Shown one piece after another: positions 18,480-41,086 of a stretch of DNA of 41,086 bases (the stretch's first letter is position 1; every line of letters starts with the position of its first letter). Under the pieces are notes generated by a model. It saw only the letters and a list, made by a program, of their open reading frames with translations, searched no databases and had not been told where the DNA came from. The translations under genes were made by a program, and so were the position numbers. This DNA comes from an uncultured Verrucomicrobiota bacterium (GTDB lineage: Bacteria > Verrucomicrobiota > Kiritimatiellia > Kiritimatiellales > Tichowtungiaceae): NCBI GenBank assembly GCA_964609345.1, contig CAZSSI010000001.1, forward strand, positions 1 through 41,086, in the 5' to 3' direction.

Positions 18480-18567
18480 TGGCGGAGGGGGAGGGATTCG
18501 AACCCCCGGAACCTTGCGGTTCTCCGGTTTTCAAGACCGGCGCGTTAAACCACTCTGCCACCCCTCC
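18480..18567 (-). tRNA. tRNA-Ser(TGA)
   Basis: GGAGGGGTGGCAGAGTGGTTTAACGCGCCGGTCTTGAAAACCGG, long variable arm, GGTTCGAATCC...CGCCA. Confidence 0.96.
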
Positions 18568-31288: not shown

Positions 31289-32480
31289 ATTTGGCGGTCT
31301 TGACGGGAATGCGGATTTGCAACGCCGATACCAGATTGACAGCGGCCACGGCGGCACCGATCAGGAAGACGTATTGGTAGCCGAACTTTTGCCAGATGCA
31401 TCCGCACAGAATGGCGGTCGAAATGGAGAAGATATGGTCGATGCTGGTCGAGGCCGACAGCGCGGGCATGATGTGATCAGGCTCCAGCGCGATTTTTTTC
31501 AGGTAGGTGGCGCGAGCCATGCCGACCGATATCAGGATCTGGTCGGCGATATAGCATCCGCCGGTGACAAGCAGGGCGACGGACGTTGAAAACAGTTTTC
31601 CGGCGAAACCGTAGAGCAGGCAGACGCCGATCAGCACCAGCGCTTCACCGGCCAGTACAAACCGCTCGCCCTTGGTGTCGATCAGTCGTCCGAACATCGG
31701 CTGAAGGATGATGCCGAGAATTCCGCCAATGGTCATCAGGATGGCGATGTTCTGCACGGGCTGAGCAAAAACTTTAACCAGCACCCATGGCGCGAAGGTG
31801 AGGAAGATTTGTTTGCGGGTGCCGTAGAGAATTGAGAGCCAGTAAAACATCCGATACCGCTTGTGGAGCGTCAGGTGCATCGACGGCGGATGCGGACGGC
31901 TGACTTTCATCCGGTAAAGCATGATCGCTCCGCAGAGAAACCCCGCCGAGGCGGTCAGGAATGAATATGAAAAATTGAGGTGCAGCCAGTGAAATCCGGC
32001 GAAGACGAAGAAGGCTCCGCCGATTGCGCAGAAGTTGCGGATGGCGTTAATTTGGCCGAGCCGTCGTCCGTCCTGTCCTTCGCGAGCCAGCTCCATGCCG
32101 ATGCCGGACTGGAGCGGAATCATCAGGTGCTGGCCGGTGCTGTAAATAAAAAGGCAAGCTAGGGCGATAATCAGCGAATTCGAACTGAACGCGATCAGTG
32201 TCAGTCCGATGGAACACAGCGCCAGCGCGAACGCGGCCAGCCGCCGGTTGCACAGGAAGAAGAGCAGGGCGGAGAAAAACATCACCAGCAGGCCGGGTGT
32301 TTCGCGGGGAATTTCAATCAGCGTCCGGGTCAGACTGCTGACGGTGAATGTTTCATTCAGAAAATTATTAAAGACCGCCTCTAAGATGCTGCCGGAAAAA
32401 CTGGCGATGGCGACGGCCGTCAGAAAGCGGCGGACATCGCCGCCGGTATTTGCGAAACGTTCTTTCAGGTATTTGATCAT
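31287..32480 (-). CDS. MFS transporter
   Basis: About 12 hydrophobic segments; GRLIDTKGER MFS loop motif. Confidence 0.85.
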   Translation of the reverse strand: MIKYLKERFANTGGDVRRFLTAVAIASFSGSILEAVFNNFLNETFTVSSLTRTLIEIPRETPGLLVMFFSALLFFLCNRRLAAFALALCSIGLTLIAFSSNSLIIALACLFIYSTGQHLMIPLQSGIGMELAREGQDGRRLGQINAIRNFCAIGGAFFVFAGFHWLHLNFSYSFLTASAGFLCGAIMLYRMKVSRPHPPSMHLTLHKRYRMFYWLSILYGTRKQIFLTFAPWVLVKVFAQPVQNIAILMTIGGILGIILQPMFGRLIDTKGERFVLAGEALVLIGVCLLYGFAGKLFSTSVALLVTGGCYIADQILISVGMARATYLKKIALEPDHIMPALSASTSIDHIFSISTAILCGCIWQKFGYQYVFLIGAAVAAVNLVSALQIRIPVKTAK

Positions 32481-32493
32481 GACGAGCGAAAAT

Positions 32494-32739
32494 TTAAAAA
32501 TGACGTCTGGAGAATTCTCTTCCTGAACCGCTTTTCAGATACAGTTCAAAAGCTATGGCTTTCTCTTGGGAGTTGAAAGCAATCGCCGTTTCAATATTCC
32601 ACGGACGAAATTTTGCGGTATGGGGGCATCCGCCTTGATTATGTGTTTGCAGACGAGCCTGAAGATCTGTTGTGCGGCCGACATAGTGGTGCTCACCCAG
32701 TTCGCTCTTCAAAATATAAACGTAATAAGCGCCATTCAT
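32494..32739 (-). CDS. small stand-alone GIY-YIG nuclease
   Basis: YYVYILKS...HYVGRTTDLQARLQTHNQG...TAKFRPW...AIAFELYLKSGSGR. Confidence 0.88.
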   Translation of the reverse strand: MNGAYYVYILKSELGEHHYVGRTTDLQARLQTHNQGGCPHTAKFRPWNIETAIAFNSQEKAIAFELYLKSGSGREFSRRHF

Positions 32740-32800
32740 AAGAGGGCCTGCCAAGCCGTAGACGATGAGCCGAAAATATCCGACAACATTTTCTACACAA

Positions 32801-32865
32801 GTCCGCCTTCGCCAAAGCTCCGGCGTGACAGCCTTCGCGATTCGCCTTGCTCATCGCGAAGGCTG
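32801..32865. repeat. REP-like palindromic repeat plus hairpin abutting the tRNA 3' fragment
   Basis: CCTTCGCCAAAGCTCCGGC (similar copy CCTTCGCCAAGGCTACGGC at 30019); 13-bp stem CAGCCTTCGCGAT / ATCGCGAAGGCTG. Confidence 0.6.
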
Positions 32866-32907
32866 GTGCACCTGCCGGGAGTCGAACACAGATCACCGGC
32901 TTCGGAG
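32864..32907 (-). repeat. att direct repeat (displaced 3' part of tRNA-Arg(CCG))
   Basis: 42/44 identical to 41043-41086. Confidence 0.93.
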
Positions 32908-33050
32908 GCTAGTGCATAAATTAGAAAATACAGTGTTTTTTGACTTTATATTAGATAACTTTCCGTTTTCTTTCCAAATATGGCTTGTTTTGCTCAACTG
33001 ATTGTCTTATACACTCAGGCGTTATCAGAAAGCAAGTGAGCGGGGTTTAT

Positions 33051-34616
33051 ATGAGTTTGGTTTTGCGGAAAGAATCAAGATGGTGGTACGGCCGCTACTC
33101 GGTTGACGGCAAGGAATTCGTCAAAAACCTACAGGTTGAAGTCAGGGGTACCCGTCCGGCAAAACTGAAAGACACTGGAAGCGTTCACTTTGAAAATTCA
33201 CGGGGTGAGGCACAGTCCGCGCTTGATAAGCTGATTGATGAAGTCGAATCGGGGAAAAGCGAAGCGAAGCTGGCAGAAGCAGTTTATGAGGCCCGCGCCG
33301 GAAAGAAGCTGAAACGCTATCGGATTCAAGACCTTTCCCAAATCTGGCTCGACCATCCCCGCCGCCGCCCTCTGTCAGAGTTCCACCGGAAAATAACAGT
33401 TTCTAGACTGGATAGTTTCACTACCTATCTGCAAACCCATTATCCGAAACTGACGCGGATTGACCAGTTGAACCCGGTTCATGTTCAATCCTTCCTTGAT
33501 GGTCTGGAGCAAGACGGCGGAGTGACCGCCGAAACAAGAAACAAGTACCTCATCCCGATCAAGGCGGTTTTGAAAAGGGCGGGAGTTCCCGCCGCCAAAG
33601 AGATTTTAGCCAAAGACGTGGAAACCGTTTTTCGCAAGCCGTATACCATCGAAGAGTTGAACGCTATCCTTGAAGCGGCCCCTTCCGACCCGCTGATTTA
33701 TTCCTTGGTGGTAACGGCGGCATGTACGGCTATGCGCCGGAAAGATTGCTGTTTTCTGAGATGGGATTCTGTCGATTTTGAAGCTGGGTTTATCACCGTC
33801 AAAACCAGCAAAACGGGGCAGGTAGTCGATATTCCGATGTCCAATCTGCTACATGCTGAGATATTAAACCAGCGGGGCAACGGTTCGGACTATGTGTTCC
33901 CTGATGCGAAACTTTTGTACGAAGCCGATCCAACGGCGATTTCCCGCCGATTTCAAGCCGTCTTGCGTCGCGCCGGATTTGATGACGGACACGAGCCTCT
34001 GGCGGAGCGCAAAATTGATCTTTGCACAGATGAAGAGATTTATCGGGCGGCCTTAAAAAATTATACGGGTGAAAAACTTGTCCGCATTCAGGCGGTGCTA
34101 AAGGTCTATCTGGCGGGTAACTGTGTTGAGAAAAGCGCGAAGCTGGCTGGAGTCAGTCAAAGCACAGTCTCGCTATACCTGAACGAACTGGAAGGGCATC
34201 TAGGCAAAGCGTTCATTCGCGGCAAGTGCAGACCAGTTCACGGCGTTGCACTGCCGACACGCGGCAAAATCAGCGAAGAGCGGGCACAAGGAAAGAACCG
34301 GGCCTCTGTGCGAGACTTCCATTCATTCCGCACAACCTTTGTCACGCTGGCCCTGATGCGCGGCCTGCCGATCGACATCGTGCGGAAGATCACCGGACAC
34401 CAAACAGTTGACGTGGTAACGAAGCACTATTTTCGTCCGGAACGGGAGCAACTCAAAGCCGCCATGCAGAAGGCTCTGCCCGGACTGCTGACCAGCGCGG
34501 CCAAACCATTCACCCCTGCCGAACGCGCCGCCGAGGTCTTGCGCTCCGCCGGTTCTAAGGATTGGAAAAACAAAATCAGCGACGCATTGAAAATTTTAGA
34601 GGGGGATCTGACATGA
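33051..34616 (+). CDS. tyrosine recombinase/integrase with an HTH-like insertion
   Basis: TAMRRKD (R), KTSKT (K), DFHSFRTTF (HxxR), ITGH, KHY (Y); adjacent to att. Confidence 0.92.
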   Translation: MSLVLRKESRWWYGRYSVDGKEFVKNLQVEVRGTRPAKLKDTGSVHFENSRGEAQSALDKLIDEVESGKSEAKLAEAVYEARAGKKLKRYRIQDLSQIWLDHPRRRPLSEFHRKITVSRLDSFTTYLQTHYPKLTRIDQLNPVHVQSFLDGLEQDGGVTAETRNKYLIPIKAVLKRAGVPAAKEILAKDVETVFRKPYTIEELNAILEAAPSDPLIYSLVVTAACTAMRRKDCCFLRWDSVDFEAGFITVKTSKTGQVVDIPMSNLLHAEILNQRGNGSDYVFPDAKLLYEADPTAISRRFQAVLRRAGFDDGHEPLAERKIDLCTDEEIYRAALKNYTGEKLVRIQAVLKVYLAGNCVEKSAKLAGVSQSTVSLYLNELEGHLGKAFIRGKCRPVHGVALPTRGKISEERAQGKNRASVRDFHSFRTTFVTLALMRGLPIDIVRKITGHQTVDVVTKHYFRPEREQLKAAMQKALPGLLTSAAKPFTPAERAAEVLRSAGSKDWKNKISDALKILEGDLT

Positions 34617-34909
34617 CCGCTAAAGCCGAAGATATTGCCGCCGTATTCTCTGCCGCTTTGGAACATTTGAAAGACGGTGCTTTCGGGGTGTCAATTCGCA
34701 ACCTGCCGGACGGTGTTTTGATCGAGAGGGTTGATCCGTTGCTGAATGTCAGTGAGGTCGCAGAGATAATCCGGTTCACCCCCGCCACTGTTCGCGAGAT
34801 GGCCCGCAAGGGGCTTTTGCACCCGATCAAGAGCAAAGGATTTGGTGGAAGCCTGCGCTTCCGTAAAAGTCGCCTGGTGGCGGATATGAAGCGTATGGAA
34901 GATTTATAG
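34613..34909 (+). CDS. excisionase-like HTH (HTH_17/MerR-like) protein
   Basis: LLNVSEVAEIIRFTPATVREMARKGLL...LRFRKS; ATGA-coupled to the integrase. Confidence 0.8.
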   Translation: MTAKAEDIAAVFSAALEHLKDGAFGVSIRNLPDGVLIERVDPLLNVSEVAEIIRFTPATVREMARKGLLHPIKSKGFGGSLRFRKSRLVADMKRMEDL

Positions 34910-34999
34910 AATTTTCCGGCGGGTGCCGGAATAGAAGCGACCGCGCCGGGCGATGAGGCCCGGCACGGTCTAGACCACAACCAACGAAAGGCGAAGGTT

Positions 35000-35311
35000 A
35001 TGACCCAGAGAAAGCATAGCAAGAAAACGGCGGAGCAGAAAATCCAAATCACCCTGACGGCAGAGAACACGGAGAATCTACGCTTCGCGGCGAAGATGTC
35101 CGGGATTGAGCCGGAACGAATCGTGAACGAATGGCTTCTGCTGGATCTGCTGCGGGAAGTCCGCAACCCCGGCAGTGGCGCATTGCGCGACTTAATCGGC
35201 ATGACTGTTTATTACGATCCGGCGGAAGCCGAAGAGGTGAAACAGCGCGTTGCCGATTGGGAACGGGCGGCAGATCGTGACTTGGGGCCGGTGGAAGTTG
35301 CCGCCGCATAG
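35000..35311 (+). CDS. hypothetical protein with a possible ribbon-helix-helix N-terminus
   Basis: KIQITLTAENTENLRFAAKMSGIEPERIV resembles the CopG/RHH pattern; SD GAAGG. Confidence 0.55.
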   Translation: MTQRKHSKKTAEQKIQITLTAENTENLRFAAKMSGIEPERIVNEWLLLDLLREVRNPGSGALRDLIGMTVYYDPAEAEEVKQRVADWERAADRDLGPVEVAAA

Positions 35312-35386
35312 CACAACCGGAGCGACCGGCGGCAGGGTTTTCCCGCCGTCGGGACGTTTCCAAGGTTTGGAAAAAGGGGTTCGATT

Positions 35387-36091
35387 ATGGCGACTTATGC
35401 GATGGGAAAAAGCGCGGCTGAAATAAACGAGAGTCATAAAAACCGGCTCAGTGAAAAAACGCAAACAGCTATCTGCGAAACTTTGAAGAGCGCGGGCATA
35501 GACGGCGGGCAGGCCGCGTTATTCGCCGCGGCGATTGATGTGGCAGAGGTCGCTCGCTGTGGAAAATTTCCGATCCTATCGAATCCAGAAAAAGACCGCC
35601 GCCGCAAACAATACATGCAGCTTAAAAACGCACTCGATCGAATGGATGAATCTGCGGTGAAATGTTTGGAAGAGTTTCTTGCTTCGGCCATGTGGTCTAA
35701 AATGGACGATGATAAACGCATTCCCGAGCTACCTCGAATCACGCTAAAAAGTGCCCCGTATTTGACCGGCGAACTTAAACGCTCCGTCGCCATAGCTGTT
35801 GATGAAACCACGGCGAAAAAAGGAATACAAACACTGTCTGCACAGCCAGAAGTCTTGCGCCGCCGCTTAGCGCTACGGTGCATAATGGATGTTTGGAAAT
35901 GGTACATTAAGCACCCGGTAACGGCATCCGGTGAAGTAAAAAGTCCGTTTGAGCATGTGGCTCATGTGATTTTAGACAAGGCTAAACTCAACCCGCCGGA
36001 CGATCTTAAGCGGGATGTGAACGCGGCTAAAAAAATGCCAGAAAATAGGCCAATTTCATTCTCATTTTTTTTGGACGCCAATTTGCCGTAA
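35387..36091 (+). CDS. hypothetical protein
   Basis: 234-aa ORF co-oriented with the element genes, SD AGGGG; no motif recognised. Confidence 0.6.
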   Translation: MATYAMGKSAAEINESHKNRLSEKTQTAICETLKSAGIDGGQAALFAAAIDVAEVARCGKFPILSNPEKDRRRKQYMQLKNALDRMDESAVKCLEEFLASAMWSKMDDDKRIPELPRITLKSAPYLTGELKRSVAIAVDETTAKKGIQTLSAQPEVLRRRLALRCIMDVWKWYIKHPVTASGEVKSPFEHVAHVILDKAKLNPPDDLKRDVNAAKKMPENRPISFSFFLDANLP

Positions 36092-36173
36092 TCCGGCGAA
36101 ACTGTGTCCGCATCAAAAATTTGGAAAACCGCCGCGTCAGTCATAGTCTGTTGCCACGAGATAGGAGCAGATT

Positions 36174-36494
36174 ATGAACTCAATACAGCAATTAGAAGCA
36201 GAGGTTAAACAGGTGCCGGGCGCAATTCTTGCGGCAGGCGTTAGTCTATTCGCCCCATTTTGCCCCGGCCTCACTCCGGAACGGTTGCGTTCCGCGATCA
36301 CCTTTCAGCCAGAAGGCGGCAAGATCGAATCATTAATCACCCGCCGGAATACGGCGCAGGCTCTTGGTGTTTCTACCGTTAGCGTGGATAGGATGCTGCG
36401 GGACGGGCAGCTTCCGCGTCGCCGCATTCGTGGAAGAGTTCTCATACCTTCGAGCGCGATCGAGGCCATTATTTCCGGCGGAGGCTCTAAATGA
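36174..36494 (+). CDS. AlpA/Xis-like HTH DNA-binding protein
   Basis: LITRRNTAQALGVSTVSVDRMLRDGQL..RRIRGRVLIP; SD AGGAG. Confidence 0.8.
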   Translation: MNSIQQLEAEVKQVPGAILAAGVSLFAPFCPGLTPERLRSAITFQPEGGKIESLITRRNTAQALGVSTVSVDRMLRDGQLPRRRIRGRVLIPSSAIEAIISGGGSK

Positions 36495-36631
36495 AGCGAC
36501 TTTTTAAAAGCCTCTTTCGCGTTGCGCTGGCGTATGCGGCCGTTTTTGTTGCCGCCTGCCGGTGTATTTTCCCGGTTCTGCGCGTTCTGCGCGTCGCTCT
36601 AAAACTTAAAAAATCGGGAGTTATCCAATGA
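36491..36631 (+). CDS. 46-aa basic/hydrophobic peptide (not in the ORF track)
   Basis: MKRLFKSLFRVALAYAAVFVAACRCIFPVLRVLRVALKLKKSGVIQ*; ATGA overlaps with both neighbours. Confidence 0.6.
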   Translation: MKRLFKSLFRVALAYAAVFVAACRCIFPVLRVLRVALKLKKSGVIQ

Positions 36632-37710
36632 TCGGAAACAACGATATAAATCTAAAAATCGGCGCGACGGACGCCACCGGCACCGCCTTCAAATCTGCCG
36701 AACAAAAAATGAAATCCTTTGTAGGCATGGCAAAGGGTGCCATGGGTACGCTTGGTATCGGACTGGGGGTCGGTGCATCTGTTTCTATATTGAAAAACCT
36801 AGCAGGCGGAGCGCTGGCCTATGCGGACAGCATTTCGGACGCATCATCCGCCACGCAGACGTCGACCGACTCATTACAGGTTTTCCGCTATATGGCCGAA
36901 CGCTCTGGAGCCAAGGCCGAGCAGATGGACAAGGCGCTGATAAACATGAACGATTCTGCCGTGCAAGCCGCCGATGGTTTGGGCGCACAGGCTGACTCAC
37001 TGAGGACTCTGGGAATTAATTATAAAGCATTTTTTGCGATGAACAGCGAACAGCGTTTCGGTGCAATCGCCGCAGCGGTAAAAAATGCCGCCAATCAAAA
37101 CGTGGCGCTCTCCGCGGCGTCTGACCTTATGGGAGCAAAAAACGCTCCGAAACTCCTAGCGGCCATGCTCGAATATGGAGCAATCGGAATGGCTGCCGCC
37201 CTAGAATTAACCAAAAAAAACGGAGTATATCTCGATAAAGAAATGACCGCACAGCTTGATAGTGCGGATCGGAAAATAACGGACTTTAACAACCGCATGA
37301 AGTTAAAAATGGGCGCTCCTCTTGCCGTTTTTGGATCGGATATTTTGGGCGTTCCAGATATGTTCCGAAATGCCCCAAAGGGGTTTGGTGGTGAGTTGGT
37401 TAGTCAGTTTATAAACCCCGGAAAAGTTGGAGATGCTGCGTGGAAATACTGGGTTCGGGGAGATCGGTTCACTCCGACACCGGTCACTCCGACACCGGTC
37501 ACTCCGGCAGCGCCATCGCCGGCCGGAAGCGGCTTTATTCTCGAGCCCTCTACCGGGAAAAGCACCACGTTCGGCCCGAACGGTGAAGCCATGCTCGAGG
37601 CAGAAATCAAACGGCTGGGTGACTTAAATGTTTTTCTGGCCGAAACGCTGAAAAACACCAACGACAAAACCGAACGGTTGTCCAACCAGATAAAGACAGG
37701 CCGCAATTAA
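36628..37710 (+). CDS. short phage tail tape-measure-like protein (360 aa)
   Basis: INLKIGATDATGTAFKS N-terminus; Gly/Ala-rich amphipathic helices; ADSISDAS..TQTSTDSLQVFRYMAERSG...LRTLGI...EQRFGAIA pattern typical of TMPs. Confidence 0.7.
   Translation: MIGNNDINLKIGATDATGTAFKSAEQKMKSFVGMAKGAMGTLGIGLGVGASVSILKNLAGGALAYADSISDASSATQTSTDSLQVFRYMAERSGAKAEQMDKALINMNDSAVQAADGLGAQADSLRTLGINYKAFFAMNSEQRFGAIAAAVKNAANQNVALSAASDLMGAKNAPKLLAAMLEYGAIGMAAALELTKKNGVYLDKEMTAQLDSADRKITDFNNRMKLKMGAPLAVFGSDILGVPDMFRNAPKGFGGELVSQFINPGKVGDAAWKYWVRGDRFTPTPVTPTPVTPAAPSPAGSGFILEPSTGKSTTFGPNGEAMLEAEIKRLGDLNVFLAETLKNTNDKTERLSNQIKTGRN
37471..37506 (+). repeat. 15-bp coding tandem repeat (TPTPV) x2.4
   Basis: ACTCCGACACCGGTC ACTCCGACACCGGTC ACTCCG. 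Confidence 0.85.
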
Positions 37711-37988
37711 TGAACAAACCCCGCGAAATCCACCCCGATGAGACTGCGCTTTCCGCCCTGCTGTCGGAATTTGATCGTTACGTCTGTGAAGCGGGAAAGG
37801 TGAAGCAAAACCCGAATAACCCCTACGATGTTCCGCCGTTTCGTAATACCAGCATCAAACTGCTCGATATTCGGACGGCAGAAAAACGGCATGCCGACGC
37901 CGTTGCTGCGATATTGAATAAACGGCGGATGGATAAATACGGGGCTGAAAGTTGCCTAACGAGAGAGGATCAGCCGTATTATGAATGA
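37710..37988 (+). CDS. hypothetical protein
   Basis: TAATG overlap with the upstream gene and 8-bp overlap with the helicase gene. Confidence 0.65.
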   Translation: MNKPREIHPDETALSALLSEFDRYVCEAGKVKQNPNNPYDVPPFRNTSIKLLDIRTAEKRHADAVAAILNKRRMDKYGAESCLTREDQPYYE

Positions 37989-39363
37989 TTTACCGAAAGA
38001 AAATCCGGATGATGTAAGCGGCCCCGGCGGGCTCGACACCGCCGCCGAATCTCTGCTTTACGATCAGGGCGGGCGGCTGTACTGGTGGCAGAATGAGGCT
38101 GGCGAATGGGTAGGCCGTAACGAACAGCACTGCATAAGGATGCTGAAGCGCATCGGCCTGTACGGTGCTGCGACGAAAGAAGAGAAGCTTTCAGCGATTG
38201 AAATCCGCCTATCCGATGTTTCAGAAAATCGCTTCGTGACTTATGCGGGGCCGCTGGCTGGCTGGGCAAAGGGATTTTATAATCAGGACGGCAACCGATT
38301 TCTGGTAACGAAATCACCCGCCCCGGTCATTCCTGAAAAGGGAGAATTCCCGACGCTGGATCGGCTGTTTGATGTTCTGTTCACCGGATCAGAAGACCAC
38401 GAAGGCCCTGCTCCAACCGACCAGCGGCAATTCTTTTTCGCCTGGTGGCGGTATGCCTTCCAGTGCCTGCGCGAGTGCTACCCAGAGCGCGGTCTTTGCA
38501 TGGTGCTGGCTGGGGATGCTGGCTGCGGAAAGACGCTGGCAAAGGAAATGGTTCGGATGTCTTTCGGGGGCCGTGAGATCATGCCCTATGCCTACATGAT
38601 CGGGCGCGACAATTTCAATGCCGAGATGCTTTCGCATGAGCTTTGGACGGTTGACGATGAGCAGGCCGACACCTCCATGCTGGCTCGAATCAAATTCGGT
38701 GCAGAGATCAAAAAGGCAACGGCAAACTCTGCCATGCGCTTTCGCGGGATGATGCGAGAGGCTATCACTCTCACAACGTTCCGGAGGCTCTTTGTGTGCG
38801 TCAACCGGGAGCCCGACCGGCTTATGGTACTGCCGCCGCTCGACGACGATATTTCGGGCAAGATGTGCATCCTGCGGTGCTACAACAGCGAAATGATGCA
38901 GGCGGCAACCTCGCACGATACCACGGAAAGAAAAGCGTTCTGGGATACCCTACAGAAAGAACTTCCGCACTTCCTTTACTGGCTGATGAATGACTGGGAA
39001 ATGCCGAAAGAGCTGCACGGACGATTCGGAAGCAAACAGTATCACCATCCCGACATCGTCGCAGAGCTGTTTACCCTATCATCCGAGCAGGTGCTTTTGG
39101 AACAAATCAACCGAGGTCTTGCCGACCACTTCAAACTGAGTGCTGAATGGATCGGCTCGGCCCCTGCTTTGCGAAATATCCTAGCCGAAGACAACAGCCC
39201 CCTCTCTCGTTCCGAGATAAAAAATTTACCTGCACCCAACTGGCTGGGAAAGAAGCTGAGGAAGCTTTCAGAGATTCAGCCCGACCGGTTCATCGGGAAG
39301 CGTCGGGCTGCTGGAACCCAGTGGACAATCTTTCCACCAGCCCCAGAATCGGGTGACGAATGA
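37981..39363 (+). CDS. SF3/D5-like replicative helicase (primase-associated type, DUF5906-like)
   Basis: Walker A LAGDAGCGKT, DNFNAE, Walker B WTVDDE, motif C VCVN. Confidence 0.78.
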   Translation: MNDLPKENPDDVSGPGGLDTAAESLLYDQGGRLYWWQNEAGEWVGRNEQHCIRMLKRIGLYGAATKEEKLSAIEIRLSDVSENRFVTYAGPLAGWAKGFYNQDGNRFLVTKSPAPVIPEKGEFPTLDRLFDVLFTGSEDHEGPAPTDQRQFFFAWWRYAFQCLRECYPERGLCMVLAGDAGCGKTLAKEMVRMSFGGREIMPYAYMIGRDNFNAEMLSHELWTVDDEQADTSMLARIKFGAEIKKATANSAMRFRGMMREAITLTTFRRLFVCVNREPDRLMVLPPLDDDISGKMCILRCYNSEMMQAATSHDTTERKAFWDTLQKELPHFLYWLMNDWEMPKELHGRFGSKQYHHPDIVAELFTLSSEQVLLEQINRGLADHFKLSAEWIGSAPALRNILAEDNSPLSRSEIKNLPAPNWLGKKLRKLSEIQPDRFIGKRRAAGTQWTIFPPAPESGDE

Positions 39364-39390
39364 TCACCCTGCCTTTTTTTGCTCCGGATC

Positions 39391-39634
39391 GTGTAGGCAG
39401 TTGCAGAAGGCTTTTTTATACCTACACGTTTTCGCCCAATGTTTTCGGGCATAATGTAGGCAGTGAGGGCATTGCAGTAAATAGTGATATATACGCGCAC
39501 ACACACACGCACAGGAAAGGCTTTGGCAAATCTGCTATCACTGCTGTCATTCTCGAACGATGCGCCCGAATCCATTGGGCGGAAACGTGTAGGCATGGTG
39601 CCGATCTGCTCAAATCATACTGCAATGCCTACAC
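39391..39634. other. putative replication origin: nested inverted repeats with TGTAGGCA motifs
   Basis: 30-bp arms 39421-39450 / 39564-39593 (27/30); outer arms 39391-39406 / 39620-39634; directly after the helicase gene. Confidence 0.6.
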
Positions 39635-39777
39635 TCGACCGGCTGCGCTCCGATCCGGACGGATCCCCGGCCCCGGCGAATTCTCCAAGGTACTGTGGGA
39701 ACATTTTATTGAGGGTAATTCGCGACCTCGTTCCTTATGCGCGTGTCTAGCGGCTGGACTGACTAAACAACAAAGCC

Positions 39778-39871
39778 GCCGAAATTGTCTAGAAAGACGT
39801 CAAGTAAACAGCCCGAAGCGCCGAAAATGTCTAGAAAGACGTCAAGTAAACAGCCCGAAGCGCCGAAAATG
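39778..39871. repeat. 42-bp tandem repeat x2.2
   Basis: GCCGAAAWTGTCTAGAAAGACGTCAAGTAAACAGCCCGAAGC starting at 39778 and 39820, with a partial copy at 39862. Confidence 0.92.
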
Positions 39872-40024
39872 ACCTGAGTGCGAGCATATTGAAATTTACT
39901 CAGGTTTGATAGAGGGGGGCCTGCTGGAAAGCTGTAAAAGGGCTCGAAATCTGCACCGGCGATGTTAAACCGGATCACTCCGAACCCATTCCAACCAGCC
40001 GCAAACAAGTCGCGTATTAAAACA

Positions 40025-40052
40025 ACGTCGCATAATAGTAGTTATGTCTGGT
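40025..40052 (+). other. dif-like (XerCD) site
   Basis: ACGTCGCATAA-TAGTAG-TTATGTCTGGT versus E. coli dif GGTGCGCATAA-TGTATA-TTATGTTAAAT. Confidence 0.55.
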
Positions 40053-40127
40053 TGTAAAACGTTGATTTGTAGGCACTTAATTTTTTGCCCATAAAAACAA
40101 AGTTAAAATAGAGCGGCTTTTAATGGA

Positions 40128-40157
40128 TTGACAAGGGGGGTTTTACGAAGTAAAACC
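40128..40157 (+). promoter_or_regulatory. sigma-70 promoter with an operator palindrome over the -10
   Basis: TTGACA-N17-TAAAAC; inverted repeat GGTTTTAC-GAA-GTAAAACC. Confidence 0.6.
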
Positions 40158-40163
40158 GGCACC

Positions 40164-40433
40164 ATGAAGTTTGGGGAAAATATAGCACTCACCATCGAGC
40201 AGGCCGCAGAAGAGGCCGGGCTTTCAACCGTCGCCATTTATGGCTTCATTAAGGCCGGAAAACTGACCGCCATACACCAAGACGGGCGGACGCTTCTATC
40301 CAAAGCCGAACTGGGGAGCCTTCTCTCTGCCGTCTGCCCTCAATGCGGTGAAGGTTTTCGCAAAGGCAACCAGCGGCAACGATTCTGCTCGCAATCCTGC
40401 CGCCAAAAGGCGAACCGTTCCGGACGGTCTTAG
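40164..40433 (+). CDS. HTH (Xis-like) plus C4 zinc-ribbon protein
   Basis: LTIEQAAEEAGLSTVAIYGFIKAGKL; CPQC...RFCSQSCRQKANR. Confidence 0.75.
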   Translation: MKFGENIALTIEQAAEEAGLSTVAIYGFIKAGKLTAIHQDGRTLLSKAELGSLLSAVCPQCGEGFRKGNQRQRFCSQSCRQKANRSGRS

Positions 40434-40780
40434 TCCATCATTGCCAGTGCAAGCGCCTTCTTGCTGGCCGTGAGGGCGCGTTTTGCCGCGTCTGCTGCGG
40501 CTTCGGCTTTTCGGACATCATCCATAGCCCGATCTATGTCCGAACCGGGCAACCATGCTTGAACTGAGGGAATGTCGCTTTCGTTACCAGAAACAATCCC
40601 GTCGCTCTGGCCGGACAGAATTCCGAACCGATGCTTACAGTACATCCCATTTTGACCTGCGGGACAGGTGCAATAGGCGGATACGTTGCCGCCGCCTTTG
40701 TTTGTGAAGGTCACTCGGTACGGCTCCGGAGCCGATCCTTGAACCATGAAAACGATCTGACTGCGTGATTCTGCGTTCAT
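40430..40780 (-). CDS. SWIM zinc-finger protein
   Basis: VQGSAPEPYRV...YCTCPAGQNGMYCKH (CxC-x7-CxH) followed by a coiled coil. Confidence 0.8.
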   Translation of the reverse strand: MNAESRSQIVFMVQGSAPEPYRVTFTNKGGGNVSAYCTCPAGQNGMYCKHRFGILSGQSDGIVSGNESDIPSVQAWLPGSDIDRAMDDVRKAEAAADAAKRALTASKKALALAMMD

Positions 40781-41042
40781 GCCGGGACAATAGCGGGTTT
40801 AATTTTTCCGTCCATCGCTATTTTTTCGCCAGAGCGATGACGAATAGGCCGCAGCGCGCCTGAAAAATGATGATCGTCGGGCCTATTCGGTGGACTCGCT
40901 GAAAAACTTTCCGGTTTCTTTCCGGTTGTGCTCCGTTTTAATCACGAAGCATCACGCGCTATCAAAGCGGGCGGAAAAGGTGGTGGTATCAGCAAACCCC
41001 AATAAATAAAGGCTAAACCCGAATGAATAACCCCTGAAAAGA

Positions 41043-41086
41043 TGGTGCACCTGCCGGGAGTCGAACCCAGATCACCGGATTCGGAG
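41043..41086 (-). tRNA. tRNA-Arg(CCG), 3' half (5' half beyond the window); also the right att repeat
   Basis: Minus strand CT-CCG-AA TCCGG TGAT CTGGG TTCGACT CCCGG CAGGTGC ACCA. Confidence 0.85.

Follow-up and report, generated by a model that had tools for sequence, protein, structure and literature searches.

A tRNA-Arg island with a lambda-like cos motif and a lone tape-measure gene in an uncultured Verrucomicrobiota bacterium: a probable phage satellite

Why should a mobile element with no other virion gene carry a gene for a tape-measure protein (TMP)? The question is raised by an island of about 8.2 kb, inserted in a tRNA-Arg(CCG) gene at the end of contig CAZSSI010000001.1 (here C1; assembly GCA_964609345.1, an uncultured Verrucomicrobiota bacterium of the Tichowtungiaceae), which was analysed over its full length of 41,086 nt and is referred to below as the window. 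A first-pass annotation had proposed that the island is a minimal satellite that acts on the tail of its helper phage instead of on packaging. Starting from the observed boundaries, empty site, gene content, cos identity and TMP ancestry, we conclude that the element is real and probably a mobile satellite, that it is likely packaged from a cos site, and that its TMP is somewhat more probably than not a component of short, chimeric tails. The cos site (39688–39730) and the missing primase go beyond what the first-pass annotation had observed.

The island is bounded by two direct repeats at positions 32864–32907 and 41043–41086, which are identical at 42 of 44 nucleotides and, as had been reported, lie 8,179 bp apart. 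The left attachment site (attL, 32864–32914) is the displaced 3′ part of tRNA-Arg(CCG) and was delimited by its match to an empty site on another contig of the same assembly, C150, which opens with 31 nt of the left flank and continues into a complete tRNA-Arg(CCG) gene. The right site (attR, 41043–41086, minus strand) is the 3′ half of the gene, cut by the end of the contig, which stops inside attR; it is recognised both by the empty-site match and by Rfam, where this tRNA half is the sole match. The assembly is fragmented (1.69 Mb, 87.5% complete). attL agrees with the empty site at 49 of 51 positions, extending the core to 32914, and attR at 43 of 44. Four public runs from one freshwater study (X1–X4) were examined, and one of them may come from the source sample. 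In all four, loose ends at 32914 continue into the empty-site sequence, and in X1–X3 the contig depth, a rough measure, drops on entering the island, from 44, 42 and 26 in the flanking host DNA to about 10, 9 and 7. The island is therefore polymorphic in the population. Other contigs of the four runs match the window at 33100–34400 (a second integrase allele), about 39680–39830 (the cos region), 40120–40295 (a gene for a helix-turn-helix (HTH) and finger protein) and 40932–41086 (the att arm), with different sequence ahead of the tRNA end. These matches, taken as separate stretches, suggest that at least one further element probably uses the same tRNA-Arg site.

The cos site lies at 39688–39730 on the forward strand and was recognised by its match to the sequence ahead of terS in phage G433 and by a motif survey. 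A cosQ-like heptamer (39688–39694) stands about 18 nt before a cosN-like dyad, paralleling the heptamer-then-dyad arrangement of cosQ and cosN in lambda, and the predicted 12-nt cohesive end (39714–39725) equals the 12-mer of G433. Over positions 39687–39750 the window agrees at 54 of 64 nt with the gap between the gpZ-like gene and terS of that phage. G433 (IMGVR_UViG_3300009694_000061; 33,184 bp, CheckV 99%) is temperate; its terminase is of the gpA type and its portal of the lambda type. The contig with the cos match also carries the closest phage TMP (45% identical to that of the element; locus L056) and the best viral helicase match of the alignment scan (38%; locus L103). Given these matches and the genome ends that the motif marks in viral contigs (below), the element is likely a cos-packaged satellite, resembling the phage-inducible chromosomal islands (PICIs), of a phage of the G433 type. 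The source genome has a prophage of its own, whose integrase is 56% identical to that of G433, which suggests that the host of G433 is related to the source bacterium. Behind the cos site lie two tandem 42-nt copies (39777–39860, forward strand), found by repeat search; from their position, one may guess at a cosB-like binding region.

A survey pattern of 18 bases in two blocks, drawn from the element's site, is contained in 71 viral contigs. Where there is room of at least 1.5 kb, a terL gene of the gpA type lies downstream in 48 of 55 viral loci. Eleven of the 71 contigs, about 8–9 distinct sequences, end 2–4 nt behind the motif, compared with 0.04 expected, and a twelfth continues into what we take to be adapter sequence. 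For a second pattern, the contig start lies one base ahead of the core in 2 of 11 cases. The left and right contig ends at the motif overlap by 12 nt, as they would if 5′ cohesive ends had been filled in. In viral contigs the motif thus indicates where the genome physically ends, and its two-block form can serve to locate these ends in many kinds of lambda-like phage. The pattern was absent from 100 shuffles of the window, and among 401 genomes of the class it matched the window and one site inside a host-like gene of genome G310, which was rejected as a chance match; a cos query against GenBank phages likewise returned chance matches only. In the viral loci (L264–L334) the motif usually lies between the gpZ-like gene and terS–terL, and in three of them (L285, L322 and L327) it stands directly ahead of a primase-like open reading frame (ORF) of 800–834 aa.

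The TMP gene (36628–37710, forward strand) encodes 360 aa, and its earlier identification is borne out by phage homologues and by six PHROG families with matches at E ≤ 0.0002, of which five carry the name TMP (best E 3.5 × 10−13). The protein consists of a phage-type N-terminal part of ~235 aa, a proline-rich linker and a C-terminal helix that is predicted with low confidence. Among relatives whose context is known, those nearest to it are full TMPs of 511–634 aa in siphovirus tail modules (L056–L058), and in a tree of 33 rows over the first 240 residues it is nested among TMPs of lambda-like phages, as sister to three forms of 385–387 aa. The fold model is confident for residues 60–220 only; most of the named proteins among its top viral fold matches are TMPs, and a fold search of the PDB gave no match at E ≤ 0.001. 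In lambda, the C-terminal part of the TMP forms a three-helix plug in the tail tip, according to the accessible part of the source (PMC10721106). The last ~70 residues of the island's protein are 44% identical to the end of another short TMP, P0009 (E 7 × 10−16), with weak matches to P0021 and P0017 (153 other C-termini compared), and the match to P0009 indicates that this end is not a random frameshift sequence. Several short TMPs (P0002, P0003, P0006, P0009 and P0021) were compared at the level of the protein sequence. A scan of GTDB contigs with an alignment of close TMPs found no relative, and a scan of viral contigs with P0009 found no match.

A profile search with the TMP gave matches in 20 of 400 genomes of the same class, and 23 loci were inspected. 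Fifteen of these have head, terminase or other tail genes next to them; five were left unclassed, one is a remnant without an integrase (L100, rejected as another satellite because it has neither integrase nor att) and two are islands bounded by att sites. The clean one, L079, has 60-bp att repeats at a tRNA-Thr gene and measures 10.3 kb, with an integrase, an HTH protein, a primase, an AAA_25 helicase, a 615-aa TMP and a dif-like site. The ambiguous one, L081, has 39-bp att repeats at a tRNA-Ser gene, measures 10.5 kb and encodes a 413-aa TMP; at L081:11589–13982 a DnaB-N/AAA_25 replicase is fused in frame to the C-terminal half of TerL, which shares 41% identity with its counterpart in prophage L080; in the tree, the TMPs of L080 and L081 are sisters. 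There are thus two further att-bounded islands with integrase, replicase and TMP. Neither has a cos motif of the type described above, and the TMPs of the three islands do not group in the tree. The exact set of integrase, TMP and superfamily 3 (SF3) helicase, which the first-pass annotation had proposed to search for elsewhere, does not recur in 180 helicase loci; what recurs is the design, with other replicases. Of the first 20 helicase loci, several are small islands with integrase and helicase at tRNA genes. Among these, L045 has an integrase, a helicase, a dif-like site and an HTH-finger gene between 72-bp repeats and has no TMP. In this group of bacteria, small islands with integrase, HTH protein, primase and helicase seem to be common (L035–L054 and L182–L261); several of them lie at tRNA genes, and most are not delimited.

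The resident prophage of the source genome is lambda-like and lies in pieces on contigs C13, C24 and C133/C135, its terS and cos region being unassembled. As the helper it is not supported: its TMP is only 29% alike and the assembly has no second cos motif, although the terS region is among the parts that were not assembled. Two head modules that share 96% identity lie on C133 and C135.

The ORFs named in the first-pass annotation are present as it describes them, and 12 ORFs of the element were scanned against Pfam, PHROG and NCBIfam. In total these comprise a tyrosine integrase, three HTH_17 proteins, the TMP, a DUF5906 helicase and a SWIM finger protein, while the ORFs of 46, 92, 103 and 234 aa have no family match and the remaining one, of 170 aa, overlies the origin and is probably not a real gene. 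For none of the 12 was there a match to a capsid, portal, TerL, tail-tube, lysis or relaxase family, as the earlier reading of the sequence had it, or to the capsid-hijacking Sid, Psu and delta of P4-like satellites; the sole match of the packaging class is a weak terS profile over an HTH stretch (PHROG, E 0.008). The small ORFs were also compared with nine phage and island loci, where no tblastn match at E < 0.4 was found except for the HTH-finger gene. A promoter and terminator scan stayed at chance level.

The genes lie on the forward strand unless stated otherwise. The integrase (521 aa, 33051–34616; PF00589 E 4 × 10−15, phrog_1 E 6 × 10−42) has intact catalytic-type motifs at 228, 251, 423, 447 and 458; its residues of about 340–400 form an HTH-like insertion inside the catalytic domain, with weak LacI/LysR matches. 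It is followed by an HTH_17/MerR-type protein, likely an excisionase or activator (34613–34909; PF12728 E 3 × 10−9, MerR_1 just above the cut-off, phrog_66), and by two hypothetical proteins. That of 103 aa (35000–35311) has no Pfam or PHROG family and is possibly, as a lead, a ribbon-helix-helix protein, given a strand-helix-helix arrangement in a single-sequence model with a predicted local distance difference test (pLDDT) score of 51. That of 234 aa (35387–36091) has no family, and a protein search returns only the protein itself; it falls into ESM clusters without a name at 0.95–0.96, with low recognition, and the ESM Atlas gave no named family for it or for the 92-aa protein. A second HTH_17 protein (36174–36494; PF12728 E 1 × 10−6), to which an ORF of the helicase locus L053 is 40% identical, opens an operon in which stop and start codons overlap at four junctions, HTH/46-aa, 46-aa/TMP, TMP/92-aa and 92-aa/helicase, in agreement with the proposed translational coupling. 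The 46-aa peptide (36491–36631), overlapped on both sides, has no family or relative that we could find, and the 92-aa protein (37710–37988), probably part of the backbone, has one homologue, 89% identical; the first 21 nt of its gene also occur in another contig in runs X1–X3.

The operon ends with the helicase (460 aa, 37981–39363), of the SF3 type and with intact Walker A and Walker B motifs and an intact motif C, the DUF5906 match (E 2.8 × 10−5) being below the Pfam cut-off; it has no primase domain. Among 80 titled records of its family, 65 bear Verrucomicrobiota or Lentisphaerae names, which, as far as a mobile gene can tell, points to a host in the Planctomycetes-Verrucomicrobia-Chlamydiae (PVC) group, probably in the Kiritimatiellia. 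Many relatives carry a primase beside the helicase or fused to it. A scan of viral contigs with the helicase as a single sequence gave no match. Repeat search and fold score show nested inverted repeats and five 8-mer iterons behind it (39391–39635). The palindrome, already noted as origin-like, has 33-nt arms and a fold z of −6.8, and the 8-mer occurs five times within 260 nt, compared with 33 times in the whole 1.69-Mb assembly; the region is likely a replication origin, judging from its position behind the helicase. The previously noted site at 40022–40049, which we take to be dif-like, is the single such match in the whole assembly and is identical at 25 of 28 positions to the site in island L045. 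Such sites recur near the helicase or the last gene in islands and phages (L045, L079, L105–L107, L109, L110, L120/L256, L131 and L225), and one may guess that they serve to resolve dimers of circular forms via the host's Xer recombinases. The last two genes encode a protein with HTH_17 and a Cys finger (40164–40433; Pfam and PHROG), 35% identical to the product of the last gene of island L045, and a SWIM zinc-finger protein, classed as cargo (40430–40780, minus strand; PF04434 E 7.5 × 10−6). PADLOC gave the latter a partial match to PDC-S62, over 46 of 566 positions, and found no complete defence gene in the element. Outside the island, a GIY-YIG gene lies just beyond attL (32494–32754, minus strand); one contig of X4 skips 32460–32735, which points to an optional insertion. 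A tRNA-Ser(TGA) gene lies at 18480–18567 (minus strand).

How, then, might the element live? To us the balance tips slightly towards a PICI-like satellite that is packaged by a lambda-like temperate helper and uses its own TMP in shorter, chimeric tails. Growth of the helper would switch on the HTH proteins, the integrase would excise a circle, and the helicase would replicate it from the iteron region with a borrowed primase. The helper terminase would cut at the cos site, at the same predicted 12-nt end as in G433, and since no capsid-resizing gene is recognisable, concatemers would be expected to fill full-size heads: four copies measure 32.7 kb, compared with a helper genome of 33.2 kb, a fit that is not counted as evidence because some multiple of 8.2 kb nearly always fits. 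The 360-aa TMP would use the chaperones, tube and tip of the helper and shorten the tails, at 1.6 Å per residue, from 85 nm to about 58 nm. Incorporation of the TMP, taken by itself, is given the same slight preference because of the precedent of the PICI-like elements (PLEs) of Vibrio cholerae, the coupled ORF, which is intact, and the conservation of the terminal helix. Cos packaging of a satellite is likely, and highly probable when set against a phage relic. Of the first-pass proposal, the satellite is thus supported, and gains strength from the cos motif, the empty site that varies in the population and the two additional islands; the word "instead" is not, as a cos site would engage the packaging of the helper.

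The same cos-packaged satellite could use its TMP as a poison of tail assembly, which would join the helper TMP in assembly or tie up its chaperones, so that the foreign C-terminus blocks completion and the helper yield falls. The N-terminal 235 aa that are 45% identical to a phage TMP, the loss of the C-terminal domain known from lambda and the fact that the element brings neither a chaperone nor a hub gene would all suit such a role, and tail interference by satellites has been described, in the accessible text, for Rta; Tai is reportedly another case. We consider this unlikely, as the element itself depends on tails in order to spread, P0009 has the C-terminal helix conserved, and short TMPs of 426–466 aa with other C-termini sit in ordinary prophage tail modules (e.g., L078, L080 and L083). 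A little less probable still is an ordinary PICI-like island of the cos type into which part of the helper's late region was recently taken up, with the TMP as passive cargo without a present role. Capture of late genes by PICIs is described in the consulted part of PMC10111431, relatives without a TMP such as L045 are common, co-occurring contigs share the backbone without this TMP, and its branch in the tree is long; yet the reading frame is undamaged and coupled to its neighbours in the replication operon, the replaced C-terminus recurs in P0009, and separate TMP lineages occur in comparable islands.

Finally, the island could be what remains of a lambda-like prophage after deletion of its head and tail genes. 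One phage contig holds the closest TMP, the closest viral helicase and the cos match, helicase, origin and cos follow each other in the same order in phage, and both the TerL fragment of L081 and the TMP-bearing remnant L100 show precedents. Nevertheless, we consider this very improbable. The TMP of such a prophage lies beyond cos from the helicase while here it precedes the helicase, and a single deletion of a G433-like prophage is excluded by this difference in gene order. Only 3 of 11 ORFs resemble G433, namely the TMP, the helicase and the integrase (25%, N-terminal part), and the integrase is closer (35–37%) to those at L054, L253 and L258; both att sites are kept, and the search in six frames for pseudogenised tail genes near the TMP, a check set out beforehand, revealed no other tail-gene remnant.

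Several observations weigh against a cos-packaged satellite with its own tails. The TMP lacks PF09718, which is present in the phage TMPs of L056 and P0008 and absent also from P0009 and P0006, and it lacks the C-terminal ~170 aa of its phage relatives; its branch measures 1.02 compared with 0.15–0.46 for the others, and the long branch and missing part would also fit decay or interference. The co-occurring contigs add no cover over the TMP gene at 80% identity, so that the TMP may be dispensable, and none of the 180 loci around helicase relatives has a TMP within flanks of up to 10 kb, in a set with some duplicates and no positive control. L081 may be a product of either capture or deletion. 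The element has no detectable primase gene or domain in the Pfam and PHROG scans or the helicase alignment, the family scans found no tail-assembly chaperone, hub or TerS gene, and the assembly holds neither a second copy of the cos motif nor a matching helper cos. Of the two junctions proposed as a check, the empty attB is there, but no attP junction is listed among the assembled contigs of runs X1–X4, contigs being prone to drop rare forms; and because attL and the empty site disagree at position 32888, the empty form probably comes from an element-free lineage and is probably no fresh excision product.

A wider proposal, which we hold only tentatively, is that a minimal family of satellites hijacks tails by one gene, joining a TMP N-terminus derived from whichever lambda-like helper serves to a satellite-specific C-terminal plug. 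The C-terminal module is common to the TMPs of the window and P0009, while their N-termini are apart in the tree. If this were true, a helper's cos site and a single TMP gene would suffice to give satellite particles short tails as their mark, and genes for a chaperone, hub, terminase or capsid would not be needed. The cos-packaged satellite makes exact predictions: 12-nt ends at 39714–39725, tetramers in full-size heads, and tails of about 58 nm compared with 85 nm.

Among known systems, compared here as the accessible parts of the cited sources describe them, the closest in packaging are the cos PICIs of the EcCICFT073 type (PMC6092414), which share the integrase, small DNA-binding regulators, a replication gene, a helper-type cos with cosQ and cosN, the lack of TerS and of a capsid-resizing gene, and predicted concatemers in full-size heads. 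The cos of the island is a predicted site, recognised by sequence and by genome ends in other phages as a proxy. The island differs in having HTH_17/MerR proteins instead of a Phage_AlpA match, no primase, an SF3-type helicase, a TMP, a dif-like site and a probable PVC host. Against the PICI definition of SatelliteFinder (PMC10085698), compared by hand without running the program, the island has the integrase (PF00589, phrog_1). Where the definition asks for a regulator homologous to alpA, merR or stl, there is a strong HTH_17 match, MerR_1 just above the cut-off and no Phage_AlpA match; for the primase-replicase module there is an SF3-type helicase and no primase gene or domain. No capsid morphogenesis gene was detected, with four ORFs unassigned, nor a small terminase apart from the weak terS profile, TerS being absent from EcCICFT073 as well, and its TMP violates the rule that forbids tail profiles. 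Judged from its genes, it would work like a cos-PICI with a PLE-like TMP while failing this model on TerS, capsid morphogenesis and the tail-gene ban, and elements of this kind would be thrown out by any model with a ban on tail genes.

Manipulation of tails through a satellite TMP, which the first-pass annotation had put forward, is already described in PLEs, in the SUSP1 satellites and in EPIPs, and TMPs are also known from some capsid-forming PICIs (cf-PICIs). In PLEs, the satellite's TMP, shorter than the helper's as in our element, is built into chimeric, shorter tails (PMC12987554; preprint 10.1101/2025.01.29.635557), and the legend of Extended Data Fig. 10 of that paper mentions tmp genes in PLE-like elements and cf-PICIs. 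All PLEs add a tail-assembly chaperone, often a hub; they also add a capsid scaffold, and they parasitise a lytic myovirus, whereas our element has a lone TMP and, as inferred, a temperate cos siphovirus as its helper. The SUSP1 (F5) satellites of E. coli (10.64898/2026.10.15.759431), compared by description only, are flanked by att sites, have no capsid or packaging marker and encode as virion genes only a tail core; this description, att flanks with a TMP or baseplate gene and no such marker, also covers our element. They encode a baseplate protein besides the TMP and use a family-specific 13-bp attB, while the island has no recognisable baseplate gene and lies at tRNA-Arg. The EPIPs of Mycolicibacterium (PMC12822802) are satellites of ~11 kb of a temperate phage, with their own TMP and altered tail length; they have a serine integrase, TerS, a head-tail adaptor and a stopper and make longer tails, whereas our element has a tyrosine integrase and the other genes were not detected. 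The full-text literature search found no description of a TMP-carrying satellite for PVC hosts; the marine VEIMEs, integrative mobile elements that are encapsidated in virions, include Verrucomicrobia hosts, and "tape measure" is absent from the text available for them. What is new is the TMP as the only virion gene together with the probable PVC host, to which TMP-carrying satellites are thereby extended. The benefit of satellite TMPs is stated as open in the PLE paper, in the portion consulted (PMC12987554), and compared with the PLEs the island offers a reduced test case, with one virion gene, a defined cos site and a helper type represented by a near-complete genome.

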